Below, in pieces: positions 1,194 through 32,811 of a DNA stretch of 48,179 nucleotides (position 1 is its first letter; the number at the start of each line of letters is the position of its first letter). The notes below the pieces were generated by a model, which worked only from the letters and a program-made list of their open reading frames with translations, was not told the DNA's origin and searched no databases. Both the position numbers and the translations under genes were made by a program. Origin of the DNA: a phage; sequence record OZ503099.1. One strand, written 5' to 3'.

Positions 1194-5197
<4,004 letters not shown>

Positions 5198-5201
<4 letters not shown>

Positions 5202-5674
5202 TTACTGTGTTCTGGCAGTTCTCTGTTTACAGTTTCATCAAGGAAGCTATACCATCTGTAATCAAGTTCAACCAGAACATCATCAAACTCATCCATCGTG
5301 TTATTGAGTTTCTTAGCGATGACATTGCCAGTCCACGTAACCACGCCACCATCAATGCTAGTCTGCACCGGATAATCGGTAAAGTGCAGCGTCTGCTCCT
5401 GCAATCCGCTGCCGCCTAGGTCAATCATCATGGTGAACCAGTTGTTACACTTATTCAGGTAGCGTGAGCTACGAAGCCACTGGATAAATGCACGTTCTTC
5501 CGCCAGTGTAAAAATCCACGTCAGGCTCCATGTCGCCGCAATATCAGTTGTCAGCTTCTGGAAAATTGGTGCTCCGACCGCAGGCTGGTCACTGCGGAAC
5601 GGGGTTTGCTGTGTCAGGTTTTTACTGGCGCGTTGTGCCAGTGGCAGCCAGTCAGGGTATTTGATGATAGTCAT
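5198..5674 (-). CDS. Minor tail protein (gpM-like position)
   Basis: 158 aa immediately downstream of tape measure gene; start overlaps tape measure stop (TAATG). Confidence 0.45.
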
Positions 5675-8157
5675 TATTCGGTTGCTCTCCTGTTGGTGTT
5701 GTAGTTTCTTGAGATGGCTTGCCCTATTGGGCCATTTTCCGAAATATCACTCACAATCGTCTCAATTGTCACGCTGCCGTCACCGTTATCTCTGGCGCTG
5801 CTACTAACCTGTGCTGAACTGTTATTGATGATGCTATTATAAACCACAACGCCACTGCCACCTCCCGTTAGGTCTTTGTTGCTGATAACCTTTCCTGAGT
5901 TGCCAGGTATCATGTATTGCCTGCCTGTGCTCGCCTGGAATATCTCTGGTGCGTTTCCCTCGCCAACTTCGTACATACTTCCGGCACTAACAGGGCCACC
6001 ATTTTTACGCTTGCCAGCAATGCCCATTGCCATCGCCCCGAGAACGGCACCTACCCCAATTGCAGCAGCCCCGCCGAATGAGCCGATTGATGCCACGATT
6101 GCCGCAGGAGTCCATGCTGCCGTTGTGGTGGCTGCCGCTGCAGTAGATGCTGCTGTTGTGGTTGCCAATCCTGCTGTTTGCGCCGCTGTGGTTGTAGCTG
6201 TTGCTGCAACCTGCGCAGTCTGCCCCATAACCGCAGATTTTACCCACTGAACGCCCATTTCAACAAAGCTGTTTACCAGAGAGTTCAGCACTGTAGAGCC
6301 GAGGCTACGCATTGCATCCTGTACGCTCATTGTGCCTGTCAGCAATCCGGTGATGCTGTTTGATGCCGTGCTCATTGCTGAATCAAGAGCTGTACCGAAC
6401 AGCTGCGCGCCGAGGCTTTGTTGCTGCCATTCCTGCCACATGGCGTCCATTCTCTGCTGGCGATATTGTGCTTCAATTGCTGCGCGAGTTTGTTCAATCT
6501 CCGTGATTTTCTGCGGATATGCTGCGGCGTAGGCGTCAAGGTCAGCCATACGTTGCTGGTATTCGCTGTCAATGCCAGTGGTTGGCGACGCAATGGCGCG
6601 CACCCCCTGATATGATTTTTCTACTCGTTGCTTTTCTTTCTCCGCTTCCGCCTGTTCCTTCAATGCGTTCTTCTGGTCCCAAATCTTCGCAGCGTACTCA
6701 CCAGCCAGTTTTATTTGCTCCTGAGTGGCAGCTTTGCCAAGCGATTGCTGCGCGTTGAGGATTGCTTGCTCGCGGGATAGTTCGCTGGTTGATGTGGCAT
6801 TTAGCATGGTTTGCTGGCGTAATTTCTCCAGCTTTTCAGTTACTGATTCTTCAAGGTTGGCTTGCTTTGTTGACGCAGCTATGCGTTTTTTGTCTTGCTT
6901 TTCCTGCTCTTTTTTTGCAGCAAGCTCAGCCTTGTATGCCTCTATCTTGTCGAATGACGAGTTGATTGTTTGCTTGTCTGCATCACTTGCTCCAAGCTGT
7001 TCAGCTCTGTACAGTGCCTTTTGTCTTGCTGTAAAGGCGATGGTTTCACCTTCTTCCTTGATCGACTGGATGTAAGCCTGAAGCCTTTTCGTGTTTTCTT
7101 CAGTGGCTCTCGCATCCTCTTCTGAAGCTACTTTGTGCCCGTTCAGCATGTCGGTAGCCAGCTTTGTAGATTCTGCTGCCTGATCTGCCGAAATTGAATA
7201 CTCGCCAACCTTGCCAGTAAGCTCAGATAGTGACTTGTTTGCGTATCCATATTTCTGACTAAGGTCAACAGTCAGGTCACGCAGTTCCGCTATTGTTTCA
7301 GGATTGGCGTTTTTTCTCACCGCCGCCAGAGCTTCAACCAGCTTCAAAGCGTCCTCTGCGCTTATACCAAACTCATCTGCCAGGCTTTTTACCACCTGAT
7401 TAAGCTGGTTTAGTCCTAGAATATTACCCTCATATGTCCCACCAAGATTTTTGAGTGCTGTGTTTACATCAATGCCTCTTGCTTTCAGTGTATCAAGCTG
7501 ACTGATGGCTGCTGATAGTGGCGCTTTCCATGAGCCAAGTGCGTCACCAAGCTCATTGACTCCCTGCACTGAAGCCTTGATGATATTGTTTGCATCAATC
7601 AGAGCCATTGTTAACTGCGCTCTGGCGGCGTTTTCTGACTGTTTAGCCAGTGTTGCGAATTTGTCAGAGAGAACTACAACTCCATTAGCAGAAAGCTGGA
7701 ATATATCAGCAAGTCGCTGCTGTGCTGCGGTAAGCGCCTTTGTAGAAACGGTTGCGTTATCCATGCCAGCGATTAATGAGCCAACAATTACCGTACCGAT
7801 GGTTAACAGTGCACCGGCAACCGCGCCGCCTGAACCAAAGACGCTTAATAACTGACTACCTTGCTGACTTAGAGCAACAAGTGCTGATTGTCCACTCTGC
7901 ACCTGAACTACAAAGTCCTGAATCTGGTAGCCACCCTGCCGCATGGCGTTATTTAAACTGGAGAAACTCCTGCCAGATTTCTCAACTGTCGACGCGGTGT
8001 TTTTTAGACCTGTGTCAAGTTTATTTATCCCAGCAATTGACTCATCAATTGACTTCTCAATCTCCTGAAGAACCTTGTTTACCTTTTGCCCGCCAGTCGT
8101 CAGCCCGGATACATCCATCCCGACTTCGTAGACAATTCCGCCGACTTCTTCAGCCAT
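5674..8157 (-). CDS. Tail tape measure protein
   Basis: 827 aa, long coiled-coil-like stretches, Ala/Thr-rich and Gly-rich hydrophobic C-terminal region; position between chaperone and minor tail genes. Confidence 0.8.
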   Translation of the reverse strand: MAEEVGGIVYEVGMDVSGLTTGGQKVNKVLQEIEKSIDESIAGINKLDTGLKNTASTVEKSGRSFSSLNNAMRQGGYQIQDFVVQVQSGQSALVALSQQGSQLLSVFGSGGAVAGALLTIGTVIVGSLIAGMDNATVSTKALTAAQQRLADIFQLSANGVVVLSDKFATLAKQSENAARAQLTMALIDANNIIKASVQGVNELGDALGSWKAPLSAAISQLDTLKARGIDVNTALKNLGGTYEGNILGLNQLNQVVKSLADEFGISAEDALKLVEALAAVRKNANPETIAELRDLTVDLSQKYGYANKSLSELTGKVGEYSISADQAAESTKLATDMLNGHKVASEEDARATEENTKRLQAYIQSIKEEGETIAFTARQKALYRAEQLGASDADKQTINSSFDKIEAYKAELAAKKEQEKQDKKRIAASTKQANLEESVTEKLEKLRQQTMLNATSTSELSREQAILNAQQSLGKAATQEQIKLAGEYAAKIWDQKNALKEQAEAEKEKQRVEKSYQGVRAIASPTTGIDSEYQQRMADLDAYAAAYPQKITEIEQTRAAIEAQYRQQRMDAMWQEWQQQSLGAQLFGTALDSAMSTASNSITGLLTGTMSVQDAMRSLGSTVLNSLVNSFVEMGVQWVKSAVMGQTAQVAATATTTAAQTAGLATTTAASTAAAATTTAAWTPAAIVASIGSFGGAAAIGVGAVLGAMAMGIAGKRKNGGPVSAGSMYEVGEGNAPEIFQASTGRQYMIPGNSGKVISNKDLTGGGSGVVVYNSIINNSSAQVSSSARDNGDGSVTIETIVSDISENGPIGQAISRNYNTNRRATE

Positions 8158-8864
8158 TATGTATTCCTCGCTTTTTTAGCTTTGCGTTCAGCCAGTGCCT
8201 TCATGCGCTCACGGTCTGCTTTAGCCTGATCGTACTCTGCCGCGCGCTCTTCTTTCGTTAACCCCTTCGGCTCTGGGTATTTATTCTTAACCATCATCTG
8301 AAACTCTGTCATGGACAGGTTTTCGGCCTCATCGCGAGTCATATCGAAATGCGTGCGTGCTGAGATGATGTATTGCGACGCATGAAACTCGTTTGTAGTT
8401 TTCTTGCCTTGTTCTTCCAGACGCTCTGGAACCTTGAGTGGTGATTTTCCAATAATGCCGTGCTGCATCAGGTTGCGCGCAATAATAATAATGTCGTTCA
8501 CTGGCATGATGCCGGGAACATATCGCACACCGCGCGGAGTTGGCTTCCAACCACCAATCAGCACTGAAACATCATCTTCACAGCATGACTGCATGACGAT
8601 ATAGGCTGCGCTCAGCACATGGCGACCATACACGGGCTTACTGATGGTCTTCATGACCTGCATCTGCGCTCCAAATGGCAGGTATTCGACGTGCTGCAAC
8701 GGCGCAACATAATCAATGCCATTGAGCTTAGCGTATACCTCAACGATTTCTTTTGGTGTGCCAATTTCATTCATGGCGCGGAATGATGGCTTGAAGAAAA
8801 AACTCCTGTCAGAAAGCGAGATGCGCATCTCCCCGATTTCTGTTAGTGGCGTGCGATTGCTCAT
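8157..8864 (-). CDS. Putative tail assembly chaperone
   Basis: ORF directly upstream of tape measure with stop/start overlap; basic C-terminus; no frameshift site identified. Confidence 0.35.
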   Translation of the reverse strand: MSNRTPLTEIGEMRISLSDRSFFFKPSFRAMNEIGTPKEIVEVYAKLNGIDYVAPLQHVEYLPFGAQMQVMKTISKPVYGRHVLSAAYIVMQSCCEDDVSVLIGGWKPTPRGVRYVPGIMPVNDIIIIARNLMQHGIIGKSPLKVPERLEEQGKKTTNEFHASQYIISARTHFDMTRDEAENLSMTEFQMMVKNKYPEPKGLTKEERAAEYDQAKADRERMKALAERKAKKARNT

Positions 8865-8890
8865 GTTTTGCATCCTGAATTTGACTGATG

Positions 8891-8942
8891 TTGATTATAT
8901 CATCTCAGTAGTGTTGACACCTGCTAGGTGGTGATGTAGATT
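8891..8942. promoter_or_regulatory. Bidirectional promoter module
   Basis: Minus-facing extended -10 TGaTATAAT (8894-8902); plus-facing TTGACA (8914-8919), 17 bp, TAGATT (8937-8942). Confidence 0.45.
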
Positions 8943-8977
8943 CAAGTCATCGAAACGAGATATTGATGAGGTGAGTT

Positions 8978-9271
8978 ATGAAAATTAAAATGTTGATTAC
9001 ATCTGTCCTGTTGGCTTCTTCTTTTGCCGTCAGTGCAACTTCCGAGGTGTGCAAAAACATCGGAGAAATCGCCATGAACACTGCAGATGTTCGCGATAAC
9101 GGTATCAGCAAGAATCTTGCGGAAGTGGTGGTAAAAGGTTCCGCAAAAAACAACGAATCAGCAGAAATAATCGGCCTTGCTATCGTAGAAATGGTTTATG
9201 CACGCAAGGATATGACCAAAGAGCAATTGCGTGATGTGGCTGTTTCTTTGTGCGAAAAGCAAGGGATGTAA
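8978..9271 (+). CDS. Small secreted protein (N-terminal signal peptide)
   Basis: MKIKMLITSVLLASSFAVSA then TSE: typical Sec signal peptide; RBS GAGGTGAG upstream; first gene of plus-strand island A. Confidence 0.55.
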   Translation: MKIKMLITSVLLASSFAVSATSEVCKNIGEIAMNTADVRDNGISKNLAEVVVKGSAKNNESAEIIGLAIVEMVYARKDMTKEQLRDVAVSLCEKQGM

Positions 9272-9280
9272 GATTCTGCT

Positions 9281-9424
9281 ATGAACGAACAAACAAAAGC
9301 TGACCTGATTTTCTATACTGATTTGTATGTCGATGCGGGTTACGACTACGAAGAAGCGGAACGCATGGCGAAAGACTTACTCCGCGTGATTGGCGTGATT
9401 TTTGATGAGGATAAGGTGATATGA
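9281..9424 (+). CDS. Hypothetical small acidic protein (47 aa)
   Basis: ATG 9281 to TGA 9424, hand-translated; stop overlaps next start (ATGA). Confidence 0.35.
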   Translation: MNEQTKADLIFYTDLYVDAGYDYEEAERMAKDLLRVIGVIFDEDKVI

Positions 9425-9711
9425 AAAATTATGAAGAGATGAGCGATTTTGAGATTAACTGCCGTGTGCACGCAGAGATTATGCAAATCTCAGGGTTGAA
9501 TTCATTTAAGGCAAAAGACTACTGCAACAACCCATCTTATGCATGGCCCATAATAATTGATAATCACATGTCAATTGAATGCGTCACGGTTAACCGGCAT
9601 GCGTTTACATATCGCGTGTATCACTCTGCATCGTTCACTAAAAGTACGCACGAAAACCCCCTTCGTGCCGCCATGATCGTCTTCCTTAAAATGAATGAGG
9701 ATAAATTATGA
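9421..9711 (+). CDS. Hypothetical protein
   Basis: 96-aa ORF, translationally coupled within island A. Confidence 0.5.
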   Translation: MKNYEEMSDFEINCRVHAEIMQISGLNSFKAKDYCNNPSYAWPIIIDNHMSIECVTVNRHAFTYRVYHSASFTKSTHENPLRAAMIVFLKMNEDKL

Positions 9712-9908
9712 GCCAGTGGATTAAGTGTAGTGAAATGCTACCTGGTAACGGTAGTACAGATAAAGAGTTCTTGGTGTATGAAACTTTGAATAATGCCGTT
9801 CAGCACGACTACTACATTGTTCCTGACGACGAGAGAAAGCCATTCTGGAATCACTACGGAAAATATGTAACGCACTGGATGCCACTACCACAACCACCAC
9901 AAGAATAA
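9708..9908 (+). CDS. DUF551-like small phage protein
   Basis: MSQWIKCSEMLPGNG...THWMPLPQPP resembles the DUF551 pattern as I remember it. Confidence 0.45.
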   Translation: MSQWIKCSEMLPGNGSTDKEFLVYETLNNAVQHDYYIVPDDERKPFWNHYGKYVTHWMPLPQPPQE

Positions 9909-9910
9909 AC

Positions 9911-9937
9911 AAAGCCCCTTTCGGGGCTTTTTCTTTA
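9911..9937. terminator. Rho-independent terminator (bidirectional)
   Basis: AAAGCCCC-TTTC-GGGGCTTT hairpin followed by T-run; flanked by A-run on the other side. Confidence 0.6.
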
Positions 9938-10654
9938 TCAGGACACGGTGCACGCCGTGCTGATGATAATTTCCGGGTCAGTGGACGAATCTGTGACCGT
10001 AACGGTATACACACCATCGGTAGGGCTTGCCAGCGATGCGCCAGACTCACCACCGACAACCACGCCGTCTTTGCGCCACACGTAGGTGTAAGGAGCGACG
10101 CCACCTTCAACAGCAACAGTTAACGGGCTGCCAGTGCTGCCAGTTGATTGCAGGTCGGTGGTGAACTTCAGTGGCTCAAGGCTTTCGACGGTAACGCTGT
10201 CAGAATCGTAAACCTTGAACTCAAGGCTGCCAGTTACGATGTCGTTGGTGCCGCCTTCATAACTGATGCTGGTGATGTTGCAGTACGCGGTAACGATAGT
10301 TGCACCAGTTACCTCACGTACCCACAAAGAAGGCTGACGACGCGCTTTCAGTTCGGTGGCGTAAATCTCAACCAGACGATGAAAACCAAACTCATCGCTC
10401 GGGTCATTCTTGCGGATTTCAACCTCAGCACTGATGGTCATATCAGAGCTGGTTACGAGAGTGGAAACAAAGCCGCCAGCGGTATCCGCTTCCGACGTAG
10501 TGGTCTGCGGCGAGTAGTCAACGCCTTTACTGGTGGTTGAGCCTAAATATTTCCAGTCACCTGCATCCGGGACTGCGTCACCGCACCCTTCAGCAAGGAA
10601 CAGTCTGGTCATGCGACCGACCAGAACGCCTTTATCATTTGCACAAATAGCCAT
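9938..10654 (-). CDS. Major tail protein with C-terminal Ig-like domain (gpV-like position)
   Basis: 238 aa upstream of chaperone/tape measure; C-terminal segment with Ig-like (Big_2-type) sequence character. Confidence 0.5.
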   Translation of the reverse strand: MAICANDKGVLVGRMTRLFLAEGCGDAVPDAGDWKYLGSTTSKGVDYSPQTTTSEADTAGGFVSTLVTSSDMTISAEVEIRKNDPSDEFGFHRLVEIYATELKARRQPSLWVREVTGATIVTAYCNITSISYEGGTNDIVTGSLEFKVYDSDSVTVESLEPLKFTTDLQSTGSTGSPLTVAVEGGVAPYTYVWRKDGVVVGGESGASLASPTDGVYTVTVTDSSTDPEIIISTACTVS

Positions 10655-10690
10655 TTCGATCTCCGAATTGTGTTAGCTGCTAACGTGGTG

Positions 10691-10734
10691 ATTATATCAC
10701 AGGTGTTGACAGTGATTATTTTGTGGTGTAGATT
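10691..10734. promoter_or_regulatory. Bidirectional promoter module (paralogue of 8891-8942)
   Basis: Minus-facing TGaTATAAT (10691-10699); plus-facing TTGACA (10706-10711), 17 bp, TAGATT (10729-10734); shares GATTATATCA with the 8891 module. Confidence 0.45.
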
Positions 10735-10735
10735 G

Positions 10736-11228
10736 TATTTCAGATAGTTTTCGTTAGCGACTTTGCGGACTTTTTAGAAACTGACCACAAAGATAAATGC
10801 AAACGATGATGTTGTTCTGATGGCGGCGTAATAGCCTGTAAGTCAGCAAGGTCTTCCGATTCCTTGTAAACAAATTCGGCGCAGTGGCCCGCTGTGATTA
10901 ATAATGGGCACGCAACAGGTAAGAGCATTGGGTAATGTCAGCCTTGGTTCGAAGTCGAAAGACATGCGGTAATACCCAGCCCAAGTTCCAGTGCTCTTTC
11001 CGTTGTGGTGAAGCTCAATGGCGAGCTAGCAGATAGGCGACAGTGAAAATACTAGTCATGTAGCTGACCGCCGCGCGTACTGTAATCGGCAGCGCACCGA
11101 TGGAAGCAGGTTCGATTCCTGTCGCCACAACACTTAATATCCAGCATTATCGCAATCATATGTAGGGGTATGTATGGGTTACGGGGCTGGATATTAAGAA
11201 AGCACGCTGGCAATGCTTAAGCCAGTAA
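10736..11228 (+). other. Orphan transcribed non-coding region (candidate ncRNA or decayed island)
   Basis: About 500 bp between a consensus plus-strand promoter and a terminator, with no ORF above about 20 aa on the plus strand; 13-bp inverted repeat at 11141-11153 / 11187-11199. Confidence 0.3.
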
Positions 11229-25023: not shown

Positions 25024-25263
25024 TCACGCATTCTTGCTTTCATCTTTTAACCTCTTATTCGCCTTATTCATCGCATGCATCTTGCCGAGTATGGAGAGCA
25101 GTAGAATGGAATAGCTGATAGCCTTTACCGCGATTGGCGGCAGCGCTGCTTTCAGGTCATCAGGCATCATTACCCACACATGCATCATTGCATCAGGCCA
25201 CAGCTGCAATAGCGAGCAGAATGAAATCCACGCACCAAGCAGCCAGTTGCTTAGCTTTTTCAT
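25024..25263 (-). CDS. Holin-like small membrane protein
   Basis: 79 aa with two hydrophobic segments and charged C-terminus; ATGA overlap with endolysin stop. Confidence 0.5.
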   Translation of the reverse strand: MKKLSNWLLGAWISFCSLLQLWPDAMMHVWVMMPDDLKAALPPIAVKAISYSILLLSILGKMHAMNKANKRLKDESKNA

Positions 25264-25724
25264 GCCACGGCCCCGCCAGCATCCTTGTACACCTGAATCA
25301 GCTTATCCAGTTTCTGCTCATGCTGACCATAGCCAGCGCCCGGCAATGAAGCCCAGCGGGAGCGGCATTTATGGATAGCATCAGCAATGCGACCAGCTTC
25401 AATGTCGGCAGTGGCTTTGCATTCGCGGATTAACTTCATTGCAATAGCGTCCTGTGATGCTGGGGAGAAGTCCGGCAGGCACAGCTGCTTTTTGTACGCG
25501 TCATAAAATTTAGCCAGCACCTGATAGCGCCCGGCGGCGGTGGACTTGATGCCCAGCTTAGGCAGGCTAATCAGCTTGCGTGGGTGGTCGGAGTAATCAG
25601 TAAACAGTGAGCCGCCAACAATCACATCATAGCCATGATTATTGGTTTTCTGTCGTCCGTTATCCGTACCCTCGCTGTACGCCAGCATATCCAGAAACGC
25701 CTTCATGTTTTTGCTAATAGCCAT
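25260..25724 (-). CDS. R: Endolysin, lambda R-like lytic transglycosylase
   Basis: FLDMLAYSEGTDNGRQKTNNHGYDVIVGG...WASLPGAGYGQHEQK closely matches lambda R as I recall it; start at internal ATG 25724. Confidence 0.85.
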   Translation of the reverse strand: MAISKNMKAFLDMLAYSEGTDNGRQKTNNHGYDVIVGGSLFTDYSDHPRKLISLPKLGIKSTAAGRYQVLAKFYDAYKKQLCLPDFSPASQDAIAMKLIRECKATADIEAGRIADAIHKCRSRWASLPGAGYGQHEQKLDKLIQVYKDAGGAVA

Positions 25725-25992
25725 ACCAGTAAACCTCTTTTTCAGCCTTGCGTTTTGCTTTGTCGCCAGTCTTCTCGCCCCACACGATGAAATGAGCAAC
25801 AGCACATGAGAAGCAGCGAAGGTTGTGTTTCTTCAGAAGCGTTGATTTGCGGAAAGTGTCAATACCAATGTCGGTGGCGAGGCTTGTCAGTGCATCAAAC
25901 TGATTCTGCGTTGTCTCGGTGGTGATGTAAGGCGATATATCCACGGCATCGGTGATTCCAAGCGTTTCCATGCCGCGTTGCGATAGTTTCAT
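25714..25992 (-). CDS. Small ORF resembling the C-terminal lobe of a GH24 (P22/T4-type) lysozyme; possible gene remnant
   Basis: TQNQFDALTSLATDIGIDTFRKSTLLKKHNL parallels NQNQYDALCSLIFNIGKSAFAGSTVLRQLNL of P22-type lysozymes (from memory); N-terminal catalytic region absent; strong RBS AGGAGG. Confidence 0.4.
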   Translation of the reverse strand: MKLSQRGMETLGITDAVDISPYITTETTQNQFDALTSLATDIGIDTFRKSTLLKKHNLRCFSCAVAHFIVWGEKTGDKAKRKAEKEVYWYGY

Positions 25993-26036: not shown

Positions 26037-26076
26037 TTGATGTAGATTGAGAGGTGGTGCATACTATCTACATCAA
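26037..26076 (+). promoter_or_regulatory. Promoter of island D with palindromic operator-like site
   Basis: TTGATG (26037-26042), 17 bp, CATACT (26060-26065); inverted repeat TTGATGTAGAT (26037-26047) / ATCTACATCAA (26066-26076). Confidence 0.45.
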
Positions 26077-26097
26077 ATGATGAGTGAGGGAGAAATC

Positions 26098-26241
26098 ATG
26101 GTAATAGTCAAATTCAAAGAAACAGGATGCCGCAGAATGTTCAACCTTGAGCAAATCAAAATACGTCCATGCGGCAAGGTGGTTGCGCCATTTAGTCTGG
26201 TGCAGATGCGTGAATGCGAAATTGTTGAATATATTAAGTGA
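26098..26241 (+). CDS. Hypothetical small protein
   Basis: 47 aa from ATG 26098; four Cys. Confidence 0.4.
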   Translation: MVIVKFKETGCRRMFNLEQIKIRPCGKVVAPFSLVQMRECEIVEYIK

Positions 26242-26249
26242 GGCAGGCT

Positions 26250-26513
26250 ATGACGCAGCGCCAGGTGTACCAGTTATTTAGTGAGTGGTTTGATTATGTT
26301 GGTTTTGTCGGCATGACGGATAGAGAAAAGGACTTGATTTGGCTTGGGTTTTCTGTTGGTTATTGTCACGAAAATAGTAAATCAATGCTATCAGCGCTCC
26401 AGCAACTCTTGGAAATCTACGACGACCACTCCGGCAAGGTCTGGACAACATCAAGCAAGCGTCGCGCTCTTGATAATGCGCGTGCGGCGGTTAATAAAGC
26501 ATTGGGAGAATAA
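26250..26513 (+). CDS. Hypothetical protein
   Basis: 87 aa from ATG 26250. Confidence 0.45.
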   Translation: MTQRQVYQLFSEWFDYVGFVGMTDREKDLIWLGFSVGYCHENSKSMLSALQQLLEIYDDHSGKVWTTSSKRRALDNARAAVNKALGE

Positions 26514-26515
26514 TT

Positions 26516-26740
26516 ATGTGGCTTGTATTTAATATTGGATGCATAGAATGCGGTGTCTCATCAAATGTTGTTGCTGTTTATCCGCACAAACATGAAGCCG
26601 ATGCTGTCGCAGCAAAACTAAATGAAAAATTCTCATGGCGAGACGGCGGTCAAAACTCGTATGAGGTATTTAAGCTTGGTGAACTGTACGAGGTTGAAGG
26701 TGAATATAAAGAAATACTTTCTGATGGAGAAACAAAATGA
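26516..26740 (+). CDS. Hypothetical protein
   Basis: 74-aa ORF. Confidence 0.45.
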   Translation: MWLVFNIGCIECGVSSNVVAVYPHKHEADAVAAKLNEKFSWRDGGQNSYEVFKLGELYEVEGEYKEILSDGETK

Positions 26741-26952
26741 GCAACAAGAAGGTAATTGTTGGTGGCATTTACAAGAGTAATTACTCTTGGGGCGATGCAG
26801 GTGTGGCTAGTTTCATGGTAACTGCGGTTGGGTTGGAACACATACTTATCGCTGACTACCCATTGATAAAACTCAATGAATCCTGTTTAGAATATTGTGT
26901 TGGTAGAAAGGAATTCGAATCAAAATTTGAGTTTGTGGAGGAAACAAAATGA
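26737..26952 (+). CDS. Hypothetical protein
   Basis: 71-aa ORF; ATGA overlap. Confidence 0.45.
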   Translation: MSNKKVIVGGIYKSNYSWGDAGVASFMVTAVGLEHILIADYPLIKLNESCLEYCVGRKEFESKFEFVEETK

Positions 26953-27599
26953 AACTTATCGACCTGTTAGTTCAAGAATTGCCTAAGCGTGGTGGGTGGC
27001 CTCACAATGCGCTGTCAATTACCCAAGATGATGACGGTTCTCTGTGCGTATGGGACACAAATGACCCAAACTATGATGGATTGTCATGGAGACATCACAC
27101 AGGGAATAGCCTTGTATATTACTGGCGTGGAATTGATGCCGTACCTTTATCTTGCGACCACAGGGAGTCGATAGTGACCTATTGGCAATACAAATCAGCG
27201 ATCGCAGCATCGCAAAAGCCAGCATGGAACGGAGATGGCTTACCGCCAGTTGGTGAAAAAGTAGAATTTTTCATCAATCCAAAGTTTGGATACCGCAATG
27301 ACTGGATTCCTGCTGCTGGAACTGAAATGGAAGTAGTTGCACACAAGAAAACCACGGACGGAAACGATGTGGCTGTTTGCTACTGGGATGAGGGTGGCGC
27401 CGGTCGGTCATGCTGCTTCGTGCCTGAAAGCCTAAAGCCATTACGCACAGAAGCAGAAAAGAAGCATGAGGCTGTACTTGAGTCTATCTGCGCGGTGTTA
27501 GAAATGGTAGCTCAAGATTACAAGCGCGAGGACGAGGCCAAGCTAATTTATGAAGCTATCGCGGCAGGCAAGATTCCAGGTGTTAAACTGGATGATTAA
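26949..27599 (+). CDS. Hypothetical protein (216 aa, Trp-rich)
   Basis: Largest ORF of island D; no recognisable motif. Confidence 0.5.
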   Translation: MKLIDLLVQELPKRGGWPHNALSITQDDDGSLCVWDTNDPNYDGLSWRHHTGNSLVYYWRGIDAVPLSCDHRESIVTYWQYKSAIAASQKPAWNGDGLPPVGEKVEFFINPKFGYRNDWIPAAGTEMEVVAHKKTTDGNDVAVCYWDEGGAGRSCCFVPESLKPLRTEAEKKHEAVLESICAVLEMVAQDYKREDEAKLIYEAIAAGKIPGVKLDD

Positions 27600-31103: not shown

Positions 31104-31370
31104 TCACCCTCTCAAAAAATCATTCTTGCAGCAGATACCCTTATATCCGCGCTTCTCCTGCAGGTTAACGAAAACATCATCCAGAACGCGTAGCAGGAAG
31201 TCTTCGTCGATATCATACCGACGACAAATCACCTCGTCAGGCACGCCAGCTCGCGCCAGTGAATAAACCTGCTCTTTTTCCTCCTGTGTGAACCCTGCAT
31301 AGCTGCGCATAGTGATATCTCCGATAAGCCTGATGTAGATTATACTATTCGCTCGGTGTAGATTGGTCAA
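31104..31370 (-). CDS. Hypothetical protein with helix-turn-helix-like segment
   Basis: 88-aa ORF. Confidence 0.4.
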   Translation of the reverse strand: MTNLHRANSIIYIRLIGDITMRSYAGFTQEEKEQVYSLARAGVPDEVICRRYDIDEDFLLRVLDDVFVNLQEKRGYKGICCKNDFLRG

Positions 31371-31386
31371 GTGTGGTGATGAAGAT

Positions 31387-32811
31387 TTATCGCCTGCGAC
31401 GGATTAGCATTCCACTGCCACGCTGAACGATGTGGTCATTGAGTGCATAACGAACCGCGTCCCAGTAGTGGTTATATGCATCAACAATATCAGTCAGCAC
31501 ATTCCCTGTCAGCTTATCAACTTTGTAGCTGTACATTGCCGCCTCATTCTGCATCTCCTTGCATCGTTCGTGAATGACAATGCTGTCGCAGCCGCGTAAC
31601 CATGTCACGCCATCCTCGACACTGCCGGGCCATTTTGTGCATGGATGAATGTCAAAGCCAGAGCGCTTGATGTGGCTGATAGTTTCTGGTCGCGCGCAGT
31701 CGGCATACCATCGTGCGCGCTTAGCCATCGGGAATGATTGCTCCATCGCAGCTGGCGTGTCGGTAATCTCAAGCCCCACCTTTCCGTACTCGCGATTAAT
31801 ATAAATATTGCGTCGCCCGCCGGGTAACTCTTCGATGTAAACCTCAACCATTGCGGTTGGATCGGTGGAAAACCCAAAGTCCATCCCGAAGTATGGTCCA
31901 TGCCATTCAGGCTTGACCTCGAAGTTATCAATGAGCCATTTTCCGCCAAATACCTGTTCGTCGCTACGCTTGTTGAATTTTCCTTCATACACCCAAAGGT
32001 AGCGATCATAATCCACTGCCTTCATCTGGTTCATGTGCTGTTTAAGTTCTTCCGTGAACCACGGGTTGTGAACGTAGTTAACATTAACAACAACGATGTC
32101 ATCATCCTGATATATGCCATCTACCATCTTGTCGATGTAAGGCTCAACAAAGTTAGTCCATGTCGGGTCCGTCTCTTTGTTCGGGTTAAAAACAATAATA
32201 ATTTCAGAACCAGCGGCGCGCACCGTTGGAATTAACGTATCCCATGACACCTGACTGATGTTTTCGGATTCTTCACAGAACACGTCTGTAAGGCCAGCCA
32301 TGCCTTTGATTGCGGTTATGTTTCGCCAAAGGCCACGAAAAACAAACTTTGATCTCGTTGTGTGGTGTGTTATCTCGCCATCCACGCAACGATATTCCTG
32401 AGTGTGCCCCTTCCTGTTTATCTCATCAACCAGTTCGGCATAGCTTGATTCTTTGATTGAGTTCTGTATCTCACGGAAGCATCCGACGCGGCTGTTGCGG
32501 AATCTTGCCTTTTCTATAAGGTAAGAAACAACGTTAGCCGTCTTTCCGCTGCCCCTACCCCCATAGAACACCTTGAAACGGCGAGGATAAAGCAGCAGCT
32601 CCATTCGCTCAGGTATTAATATTGTTGGCTTCTCGTCTGTTTCTGACACGCCAGTGGCTGTCATTTTAAGGCACTTAACCACATTCGGTGTACCGTCAGG
32701 CAATAGCTTATCGACAATACCGAAAACAGAAGACTCTGGTTTTGCAGTTGAATTGCCTACTGCTTGCTCAAGTTTTTCTATCGCAACGCTTGAGAGTCTT
32801 TTACGCGCCAT
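31387..32811 (-). CDS. Terminase large subunit
   Basis: Walker A YGGRGSGKT near the N-terminus, conserved acidic nuclease-type residues in the C-terminal half, 474 aa. Confidence 0.8.
   Translation of the reverse strand: MARKRLSSVAIEKLEQAVGNSTAKPESSVFGIVDKLLPDGTPNVVKCLKMTATGVSETDEKPTILIPERMELLLYPRRFKVFYGGRGSGKTANVVSYLIEKARFRNSRVGCFREIQNSIKESSYAELVDEINRKGHTQEYRCVDGEITHHTTRSKFVFRGLWRNITAIKGMAGLTDVFCEESENISQVSWDTLIPTVRAAGSEIIIVFNPNKETDPTWTNFVEPYIDKMVDGIYQDDDIVVVNVNYVHNPWFTEELKQHMNQMKAVDYDRYLWVYEGKFNKRSDEQVFGGKWLIDNFEVKPEWHGPYFGMDFGFSTDPTAMVEVYIEELPGGRRNIYINREYGKVGLEITDTPAAMEQSFPMAKRARWYADCARPETISHIKRSGFDIHPCTKWPGSVEDGVTWLRGCDSIVIHERCKEMQNEAAMYSYKVDKLTGNVLTDIVDAYNHYWDAVRYALNDHIVQRGSGMLIRRRR

Follow-up and report, generated by a model that had tools for sequence, protein, structure and literature searches.

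Why should a virulent siphophage carry, among its tail genes and antisense to them, a small cassette that opens with a gene for an exported protein? The question is raised by Island A, located at 8914-9937 on the plus strand of a 48,179-nt stretch of phage DNA (sequence record OZ503099.1; this whole stretch is referred to below as the window). In order along the plus strand, Island A comprises a sigma-70-type promoter, four tightly packed genes (here called g1 to g4) and a strong intrinsic terminator. This is an ordinary and conserved slot for accessory genes in a virulent Salmonella/E. coli siphophage from the Skatevirus cluster, and there is little doubt about its anatomy as described here. 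The best guess for the product of g1, made by analogy with the Spackle protein of phage T4, is envelope-level protection or superinfection exclusion, with a probability of about 0.35. The present result is mainly one of annotation, covering a conserved accessory slot in the tail module, the class of its promoter and an uncharacterised family of exported proteins.

The g1 gene (8978-9271, plus strand) is an open reading frame (ORF) encoding a precursor of 97 amino acids (aa). The first 20 residues (8978-9037) form a signal peptide; the N-terminus reads MKIK-MLITSVLLASSF-AVSA/TSEV, with cleavage predicted after Ala20 (VSA/TS). The n-region carries a charge of +2, the h-region (MLITSVLLASSF, 12 residues) reaches a hydropathy of up to 2.5, and the -3 and -1 positions are Val and Ala with Thr at +1, in agreement with the rule-based criteria for cleavage by a Sec-type signal peptidase I. 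The Ala at -1 is unchanged among close relatives, and a signal peptide is present in all full-length g1 homologues, down to 20-38% identity. Besides the signal peptide, there is no further hydrophobic stretch of membrane length in g1. In the GenBank record of phage Vi II-E1 (AM491472), the allelic gene VIP0031, identical to g1 at 16 of the first 20 residues, is annotated as an 'exported phage protein' with a 20-residue signal peptide (SignalP 2.0 hidden Markov model (HMM) probability 1.000). Taken together, the rule-based features, the conservation in homologues and the annotation of the Vi II-E1 allele uphold a sequence-only reading of this DNA, in which the first gene was said to encode a classical Sec signal peptide. 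The family has been annotated as exported since the Vi II-E1 genome record and is uncharacterised in function; no functional test of g1 was found in the literature.

Processing of g1 as a lipoprotein by signal peptidase II was considered and rejected, as no lipobox of the form [LVI][ASTVI][GAS]C closes the signal peptide and the first cysteine is residue 25 (S-E-V-C). Because this cysteine sits five residues past the AVSA cleavage site and a lipobox is lacking, g1 is not a lipoprotein of the Cor/Llp type. Cor from phage T1 and Llp from phage T5 are comparable in being phage-encoded envelope exclusion proteins of virulent siphophages that prevent re-adsorption (PMC11990801), but they block porin receptors and are encoded beside the receptor-binding protein.

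The mature domain of g1 (9038-9268, ~77 aa) is modelled by AlphaFold as four helices (residues 19-40, 45-55, 60-75 and 81-94), with a predicted local distance difference test score (pLDDT) of 83-95 over the mature part. Among homologues with 20-38% identity, C25, R39, D40 and C92 are invariant, and A36 and G42 are nearly so. A disulfide between C25 and C92 is plausible because both cysteines would lie at the same end of an up-down bundle, and it is probably present in the mature protein. The protein matches PHROG 2315, a family of unknown function (E = 2.3e-19, residues 1-90), as do distant g1 homologues (E = 3.8e-16 to 2.7e-5). A Pfam scan assigned g1 to no family, and a Foldseek search with the g1 model gave no significant match to a solved fold; the best matches are saposin-like and insignificant (E = 2.3-5.5, template modelling (TM) score 0.32-0.45). 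Sequence searches found no solved relative for g1, g3 or g4, the defence-system models of PADLOC did not match any of the four genes, and NCBIfam contributed nothing useful.

An exhaustive profile search with g1 returned only 17 cluster representatives, a repeat homologue search with a divergent g1 alignment recovered mostly close relatives again, and a tblastn search of isolated phages with a distant member (P0122) gave no match. Homologues are 93-114 aa long, with the exception of a truncated 85-aa form and a 260-aa protein (P0129) that is a fused tandem duplication. On an unrelated phage contig (L011, 5001-5599), two tandem g1-family paralogues lie beside a DNA polymerase A gene. The occurrence of tandem paralogues and of the fused duplicate hints that a g1-type protein may work as a dimer. 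Over 23 relatives, the ratio of nonsynonymous to synonymous substitution rates (dN/dS) is 0.12 for g1 and 0.04 for g2, the most conserved gene of the island, and with ratios this low both are real genes.

Phages of the Skatevirus cluster, which are virulent small siphoviruses (Segzyvirus LPSTLL, Buchananvirus Sa179lw, Sf11, DS8 and Bas77-81), share ~91% identity with the window. The BASEL authors conclude that phages of this cluster use O-antigen, via their tailspikes, as the only receptor (PMC11990801). Island content and conservation were compared across 23 distinct related cassettes, and Island A is found in all 23, with g1 first and g2 present. In 15 of them, an extra 64-aa gene is inserted between g1 and g2, within a segment of 223 nt as opposed to the 9 nt found here. 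Its product clearly matches PF14373, the family of T4 Imm, with E = 3e-18, and T4 Imm gives 7.4e-16 with that model. The clean 9-nt junction is seen in 8 of the 23, this window among them, and the island in this window contains no Imm_superinfect (PF14373) gene.

A different g1 allele is found in the Vi II-E1-type phages. The promoter, the signal peptide and the downstream g2 are shared, but the allele is 112 aa long and its mature domain is only 34-38% identical to that of g1, which suggests diversifying replacement of the mature domain between the 97-aa and 112-aa forms. The island of Vi II-E1 (L037, AM491472, 1846-2025; also L008) is reduced to this divergent allele and g2. In AM491472, a minus-strand 'membrane protein' (VIP0030) is labelled over the g2 frame, where tblastn finds g2 at 91.5% identity, and VIP0030 is probably a mis-annotation. 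The island genes of Sf11 correspond to gp20-23; mass spectrometry of Sf11 virions detected gp13-18 and gp24 and none of gp19-23 (PMC12724387).

The Roufvirus-like phages of Klebsiella and Vibrio have the same genome layout, and their slot between the DUF6246 and tail-tube genes is still occupied, by a g2 homologue and a DNA methyltransferase in the Klebsiella phage VLCpiS13c and by imm, a g2 homologue and an HNH endonuclease in pYD38-A. Their g1 homologue is instead the first gene of an island divergent from the endolysin-holin-spanin genes, and 30 kb separate g1 from g2 in VLCpiS13c. Two metagenomic 48-kb phages likewise have their g1 homologue first in an island divergent from the lysis cassette. 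The g1 gene moves between islands, always standing first after the promoter, and by this distribution it is not tied to g2. A conserved pairing of g1 with a small partner was also considered, and rejected: the 43-aa ORF that follows the Roufvirus-like g1 has neither similarity to g2 nor a PHROG. The lysis-side slot is also found in this window (26047-27599), where it shares its last gene with the Roufvirus-like phages and contains no g1.

The promoter of Island A, TTGACA-17-TAGATT (8914-8942, plus strand), agrees with the consensus at 10/12 positions. A scan of the window for the promoter consensus is non-significant by itself, with 8 sites compared to 5.3 +/- 2.2 expected. The promoter call is nonetheless credible because the -35 hexamer, the -10 hexamer and the GGTGATG before the -10 are unchanged in 23/23 relatives despite a variable spacer; the string GGTGATGTAGATT is invariant across these relatives together with the -35 hexamer. 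The -10 is embedded in a motif found phage-wide, TGATGTAGATT. The 11-bp form of this motif, TGRTGTAGATT, has 16 copies in the window when up to one mismatch is allowed, ~8-fold more than the 1.95 expected, and this count was reached by 0/100 shuffles. The copies are at 1180, 8886, 8932, 10724, 13727, 23093 (minus strand), 26038, 26075 (minus strand), 31331, 31354, 31377, 36445 (minus strand), 40404, 40618, 43462 and 43472. Most of them lie upstream of transcription units, including helicase, PDDEXK nuclease, AAA_24 and SSB genes and a ParB-like island, and several are doubled, with TTGACGTAGATT at the -35 position and TGATGTAGATT at the -10 position. On distant phage contigs of 48 kb (L005, L012), g1 homologues too are preceded by the motif. 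TGRTGTAGATT is a phage-specific class of promoter or regulator site. Since this promoter class also serves genes of replication and recombination, Island A would be transcribed at the same time as the early or middle genes, which suggests early expression.

At the other end of the island, a GC-rich hairpin (AAAGCCCC-TTTC-GGGGCTTT, followed by a T-run) occupies 9911-9930 and can be read on both strands. Its stability is -14.4 kcal/mol (z = -4.74), equalled in 0/200 shuffles, and it is kept in all relatives. The terminator is bidirectional, ending both the island on the plus strand and the convergent tail-tube gene on the minus strand. That the cassette has its own promoter and terminator, as had been stated from the sequence alone, is thereby confirmed, both elements being present and conserved in relatives.

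The reading preferred here, exclusion or protection at the envelope in the manner of T4 Spackle, would proceed as follows. Host RNA polymerase would start at a promoter that belongs to the phage's early/middle class, transcribe the island in antisense to the tail operon and stop at the terminator shared with the tail-tube gene. The island would carry four independent small accessory genes and not one machine, with g2 and the NinX and DUF551 proteins encoded by g3 and g4 (vide infra) acting as cytoplasmic accessory proteins. The g1 product would be exported by Sec, cleaved after Ala20 and folded in the periplasm into a four-helix domain of ~77 residues. It would then act at the envelope of the already infected cell, where it would block or blunt the entry of further particles or the damage they cause. 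The layout of the genes, their regulatory signals and conservation, the export signal and class of fold of g1, the absence of the products from the Sf11 virion and the Imm neighbour in relatives are shown; we infer the early timing, the disulfide, the periplasmic target and the exclusion function of g1.

The analogy with Spackle (gp61.3, PF25676) is the basis of this reading. Spackle, the product of an early gene, is made as a 97-aa precursor; its mature form of 75 aa is a helical bundle in the periplasm, has a single disulfide and acts beside Imm (PMC7677548). The two proteins are alike in the length of the 97-aa precursor, the cleavable signal peptide, the all-helical mature domain of 75-77 aa and the two cysteines (C29-C81 in Spackle, C25 and C92 in g1), as well as in being non-virion proteins of virulent phages. 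T4 also has Imm, and an Imm-family gene stands beside g1 in relatives of this phage. However, g1 is not homologous to Spackle, and the resemblance is one of analogy. An hhalign comparison of the two gave a probability of 3.4% and covered the signal peptide only, g1 has no Pfam match to PF25676 (one distant g1 member reaches E = 0.24), and there is no Spackle chain among the fold matches. Nor should g1 be equated with T4 Imm, whose 64-aa family member occurs in this operon in relatives; Imm is a membrane protein, whereas g1 is soluble.

Superinfection exclusion had been proposed for g1 in the sequence-only reading, and that proposal stands in part. In its favour, g1 is a soluble periplasmic-type protein of a virulent phage, probably made early and absent from the Sf11 virion; an Imm-family gene is directly downstream of it in most relatives (15/23), and at least one replacement of its mature domain has taken place. 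Several observations weigh against it. No imm gene accompanies g1 in this window, and in the Roufvirus-like phages g1 adjoins the lysis cassette while imm or g2 remain in the tail island; because g1 lies outside the tail island there, the association between g1 and Imm is lineage-specific. The gene is under purifying selection (dN/dS 0.12), with no sign of an arms race save the one allelic replacement. Sequence, profile and fold comparisons detected no relation between g1 and known exclusion proteins. Finally, no tail lysozyme that could serve as a Spackle-like target came up in a partial scan of the tail proteins, made with Pfam only and leaving out a 166-aa tail ORF (3598-4098): the tape measure, an 831-aa tail protein and two smaller ORFs showed no domain of a muralytic enzyme, be it a lysozyme or another hydrolase.

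The other half of the proposal, that g1 could be a receptor-modifying factor, fares worse and is unlikely. A receptor-modifying enzyme is rejected because the mature protein is helical, only 77 aa long and without an enzyme signature or catalytic domain; the receptor in question is O-antigen.

An extended form of the exclusion reading is itself unlikely. PHROG 2315 would in that case constitute a new class of periplasmic exclusion or envelope-protection proteins in virulent siphophages that target O-antigen or capsule, unrelated to Spackle and convergent with it. In this phage such a protein would work by itself, and in most relatives it would have an Imm-family membrane protein at its side; the exchange between the 97-aa and 112-aa forms would follow from a specificity towards tail-tip or tape-measure proteins brought in by incoming phages. 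If g1 is indeed an exclusion or envelope factor, it would be a second, structurally independent soluble periplasmic exclusion protein. Its carriers, small siphophages targeting O-antigen, are abundant, and Bas77-81 now offer model phages for the group. Phage cocktails would be concerned as well, as related phages of Salmonella, E. coli and Klebsiella could exclude each other.

Among the alternatives to exclusion, the one that survives best, possible if doubtful, is that g1 is a host-directed periplasmic effector, for instance an inhibitor of a nuclease, protease or envelope-stress sensor in the host periplasm or a saposin-like binder of lipids or membranes, which would favour the infection and have nothing to do with competition between phages. 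Nearly all members of the Skatevirus/Roufvirus supergroup carry the g1 family, in one island or another, and this is what would be expected for a general infection function. In the model, the invariant R39-D40-x-G42 at the turn between helices 1 and 2 resembles a binding site, and saposin-like domains provide the best, if weak, Foldseek matches. On the other hand, those matches are insignificant, no specific target is indicated, and the comparisons of sequence, profile and fold revealed no similarity between g1 and known inhibitor families.

It is improbable that, instead of excluding other phages, g1 acts in the periplasm on the lysis brought about by the phage itself, for example by restraining the endolysin, spanin or holin or by causing lysis inhibition as T4 RI does. 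The antiholin RI is, like g1, a small periplasmic helical protein, and the place of the g1 homologue at the head of an island divergent from the endolysin-holin-spanin cassette, both in the Roufvirus-like phages and in the two metagenomic phages, would fit such a role. In the Skatevirus cluster, however, g1 is ~15 kb away from the lysis genes. The adjacency in the Roufvirus-like phages is explained by the island slot, which is present without g1 at 26047-27599 here, and the link to the endolysin is downgraded because adjacency is a property of that slot. The holin in this window is 79 aa long and, as judged by eye from its sequence, appears to offer an antiholin no sizeable domain in the periplasm to which it could bind.

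That all four genes make up a single obligate system, for example an exported effector and its cytoplasmic partner, chaperone or regulators, is very improbable and largely rejected: tight packing, ATGA overlaps, a single shared promoter and terminator, the presence of g1 and g2 in every Skatevirus-cluster island examined and the restriction of Vi II-E1 to those two genes all speak for it, but g1 and g2 are far apart in VLCpiS13c, g3 is absent from many relatives, the island can also take up imm, an HNH endonuclease or a methyltransferase, and the small ORF after the Roufvirus-like g1 is unlike g2. Because g1 is found elsewhere in Roufvirus-like phages while g2 stays, the four genes are a mosaic. 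The description of the cassette as four coupled genes is accordingly to be narrowed, in that the tight packing and the shared promoter and terminator hold, while g1 and g2 are merely adjacent and a single functional unit is unsupported.

The g2 gene (9281-9424, plus strand, 47 aa) follows g1 after a gap of 9 nt without overlap, and ATGA overlaps join it to g3 (9421-9711, plus strand, 96 aa) and g3 to g4 (9708-9908, plus strand, 66 aa). Ribosome-binding sites of the GAGG type precede g1, g3 and g4; that of g2 is weak. The g2 protein is acidic (isoelectric point 4.1), has no signal peptide and belongs to phrog_17424 (PHROG E = 1.8e-36), a family of unknown function. By tblastn, g2 is found in 205 phage records, including phages of Klebsiella, Vibrio, Aeromonas and Citrobacter.

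The g3 protein is a NinX (PF10765; 38.6 bits compared to a cut-off of 22.6, E = 1.5e-9), and its gene is optional, being missing in some relatives. The g4 protein matches DUF551 (PF04448) over its full length (44.3 bits compared to a cut-off of 22, E = 3.4e-11), so that the last gene had rightly been called DUF551-like, and a DUF551 gene is almost always the last in the island. The termini of g4 are conserved (MSQWIKCSE at the N-terminus, HWMPLPxPPQE at the C-terminus), while the middle is hypervariable. The same pattern extends to the homologues in the related cassettes (L001-L035): NinX proteins of 96-134 aa have near-identical ends (MKNYEEMSDFEI...NPLRAAMIVFLKMNEDKL) and unrelated middles, as do DUF551 proteins of 58-88 aa (MSQWIKCSE...THWMPLPEPPQE). 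The combination of conserved ends and variable middles is a pattern of cassette-like shuffling. The functions of both families are unknown (PMC10834534, PMC4776307). Both families belong to the nin/ea regions of lambdoid phages, DUF551 being represented by a lambda-like Ea22 variant (V2) and by E. coli YfdS, and g3 and g4 are clear HMM members; here, however, they are located in the tail-module island of a virulent siphophage and not in nin or ea regions.

Island A is antisense to the tail genes on both of its flanks. On the side of the tail-chaperone and tape-measure genes is a DUF6246 gene (8157-8873, minus strand), beyond which lies the tape-measure gene (5674-8157, minus strand), and on the other is the gene for the major tail (tube) protein (9938-10654, minus strand). 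Given these flanks, the earlier placement of the cassette within the tail module was correct. The GC content is ~0.42 in the island, compared to 0.48-0.55 in the flanks. With its own promoter and terminator and its atypical composition, Island A has features of a moron in the sense of Hendrix. It resembles the lambdoid morons (lambda bor/lom, HK97 gp15) in these respects, in its location between structural genes and in its variable content. It differs from them in that the slot is present in every relative examined and only the content varies; the flanking genes, which for an insertion should be neighbours in some related phages, have an island between them in all 23 relatives and in the Roufvirus-like phages. 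Moreover, expression from a prophage is inapplicable to a virulent phage, and the promoter is of the genome-wide phage class, not one that the genes brought with them.

Upstream of the promoter, an element at 8886-8902 (plus strand) consists of a degenerate motif copy, TGATGTTGATT, overlapping the palindrome TGATTATATCA (8892-8902). The element is invariant in relatives. Exact copies of the palindrome are found in the window only at 8892-8902 and 10689-10699. Each precedes a TTGACA-17-TAGATT promoter, the first copy ending 11 nt before the -35 and the second 6 nt. TGATTATATCA may be an operator, activator or regulator site. Elsewhere in the window, at 31331-31387 (plus strand), three copies of the phage-wide motif (TGATGTAGATT, CGGTGTAGATT and TGATGAAGATT) recur as direct repeats at a spacing of exactly 23 bp, directly upstream of a minus-strand ORF of 474 aa (31387-32811). 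This iteron-like array could be an origin or a regulator array.

The second of the two promoters (10706-10734) is of the same type as that of Island A and heads a unit extending from 10706 to ~11250 on the plus strand, in which no ORF was found. At 10799-10834, preceded by AUAAAU, this unit contains a template resembling that of an SsrA tag (GCA AAC GAT GAT GTT GTT CTG ATG GCG GCG TAA TAG, encoding ANDDVVLMAA and two stops); the tag of the E. coli transfer-messenger RNA (tmRNA) is ANDENYALAA. A tRNA-like domain follows ~165 nt after the tag, at 11002-11131, with an acceptor stem (GUUGUGGUG/CGCCACAAC), a D-arm, a TTCGATT T-arm and ~78 nt in place of the anticodon arm. The Rfam tmRNA models score below threshold, with tmRNA_permuted reaching 30.4 bits in a 2.7-kb scan (E = 1e-3) and 22.7 bits in a 571-bp scan (E = 1e-2), compared to a gathering score of 47. 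ARAGORN reports no tmRNA in the unit with default settings; with -ps90 one is called, its 5' domain overlapping the promoter. One relative (L032) has a compensatory change in the T-stem, along with one conservative and one synonymous change in the tag, and other relatives have ordinary tRNA-Ser/Arg genes at this position. The unit could be a non-canonical or decayed phage tmRNA.

Two further loci in the window were noted. In the region 4290-5674 (minus strand), the distal tail protein (5198-5674) is only 158 aa long, compared to 457 aa in Bas77 and Sf11; it is without the C-terminal part, which in Sf11 is the tailspike anchor, and a plus-strand ORF (4587-5201) is found there instead. At the endolysin position (25260-25992, minus strand), there are two overlapping ORFs. 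The 92-aa fragment matches only the middle of the Pfam Phage_lysozyme family, and the 181-aa ORF, which has no Pfam match at E <= 0.01, may resemble lambda R. Bas77 is likewise annotated with two 'endolysin' coding sequences.

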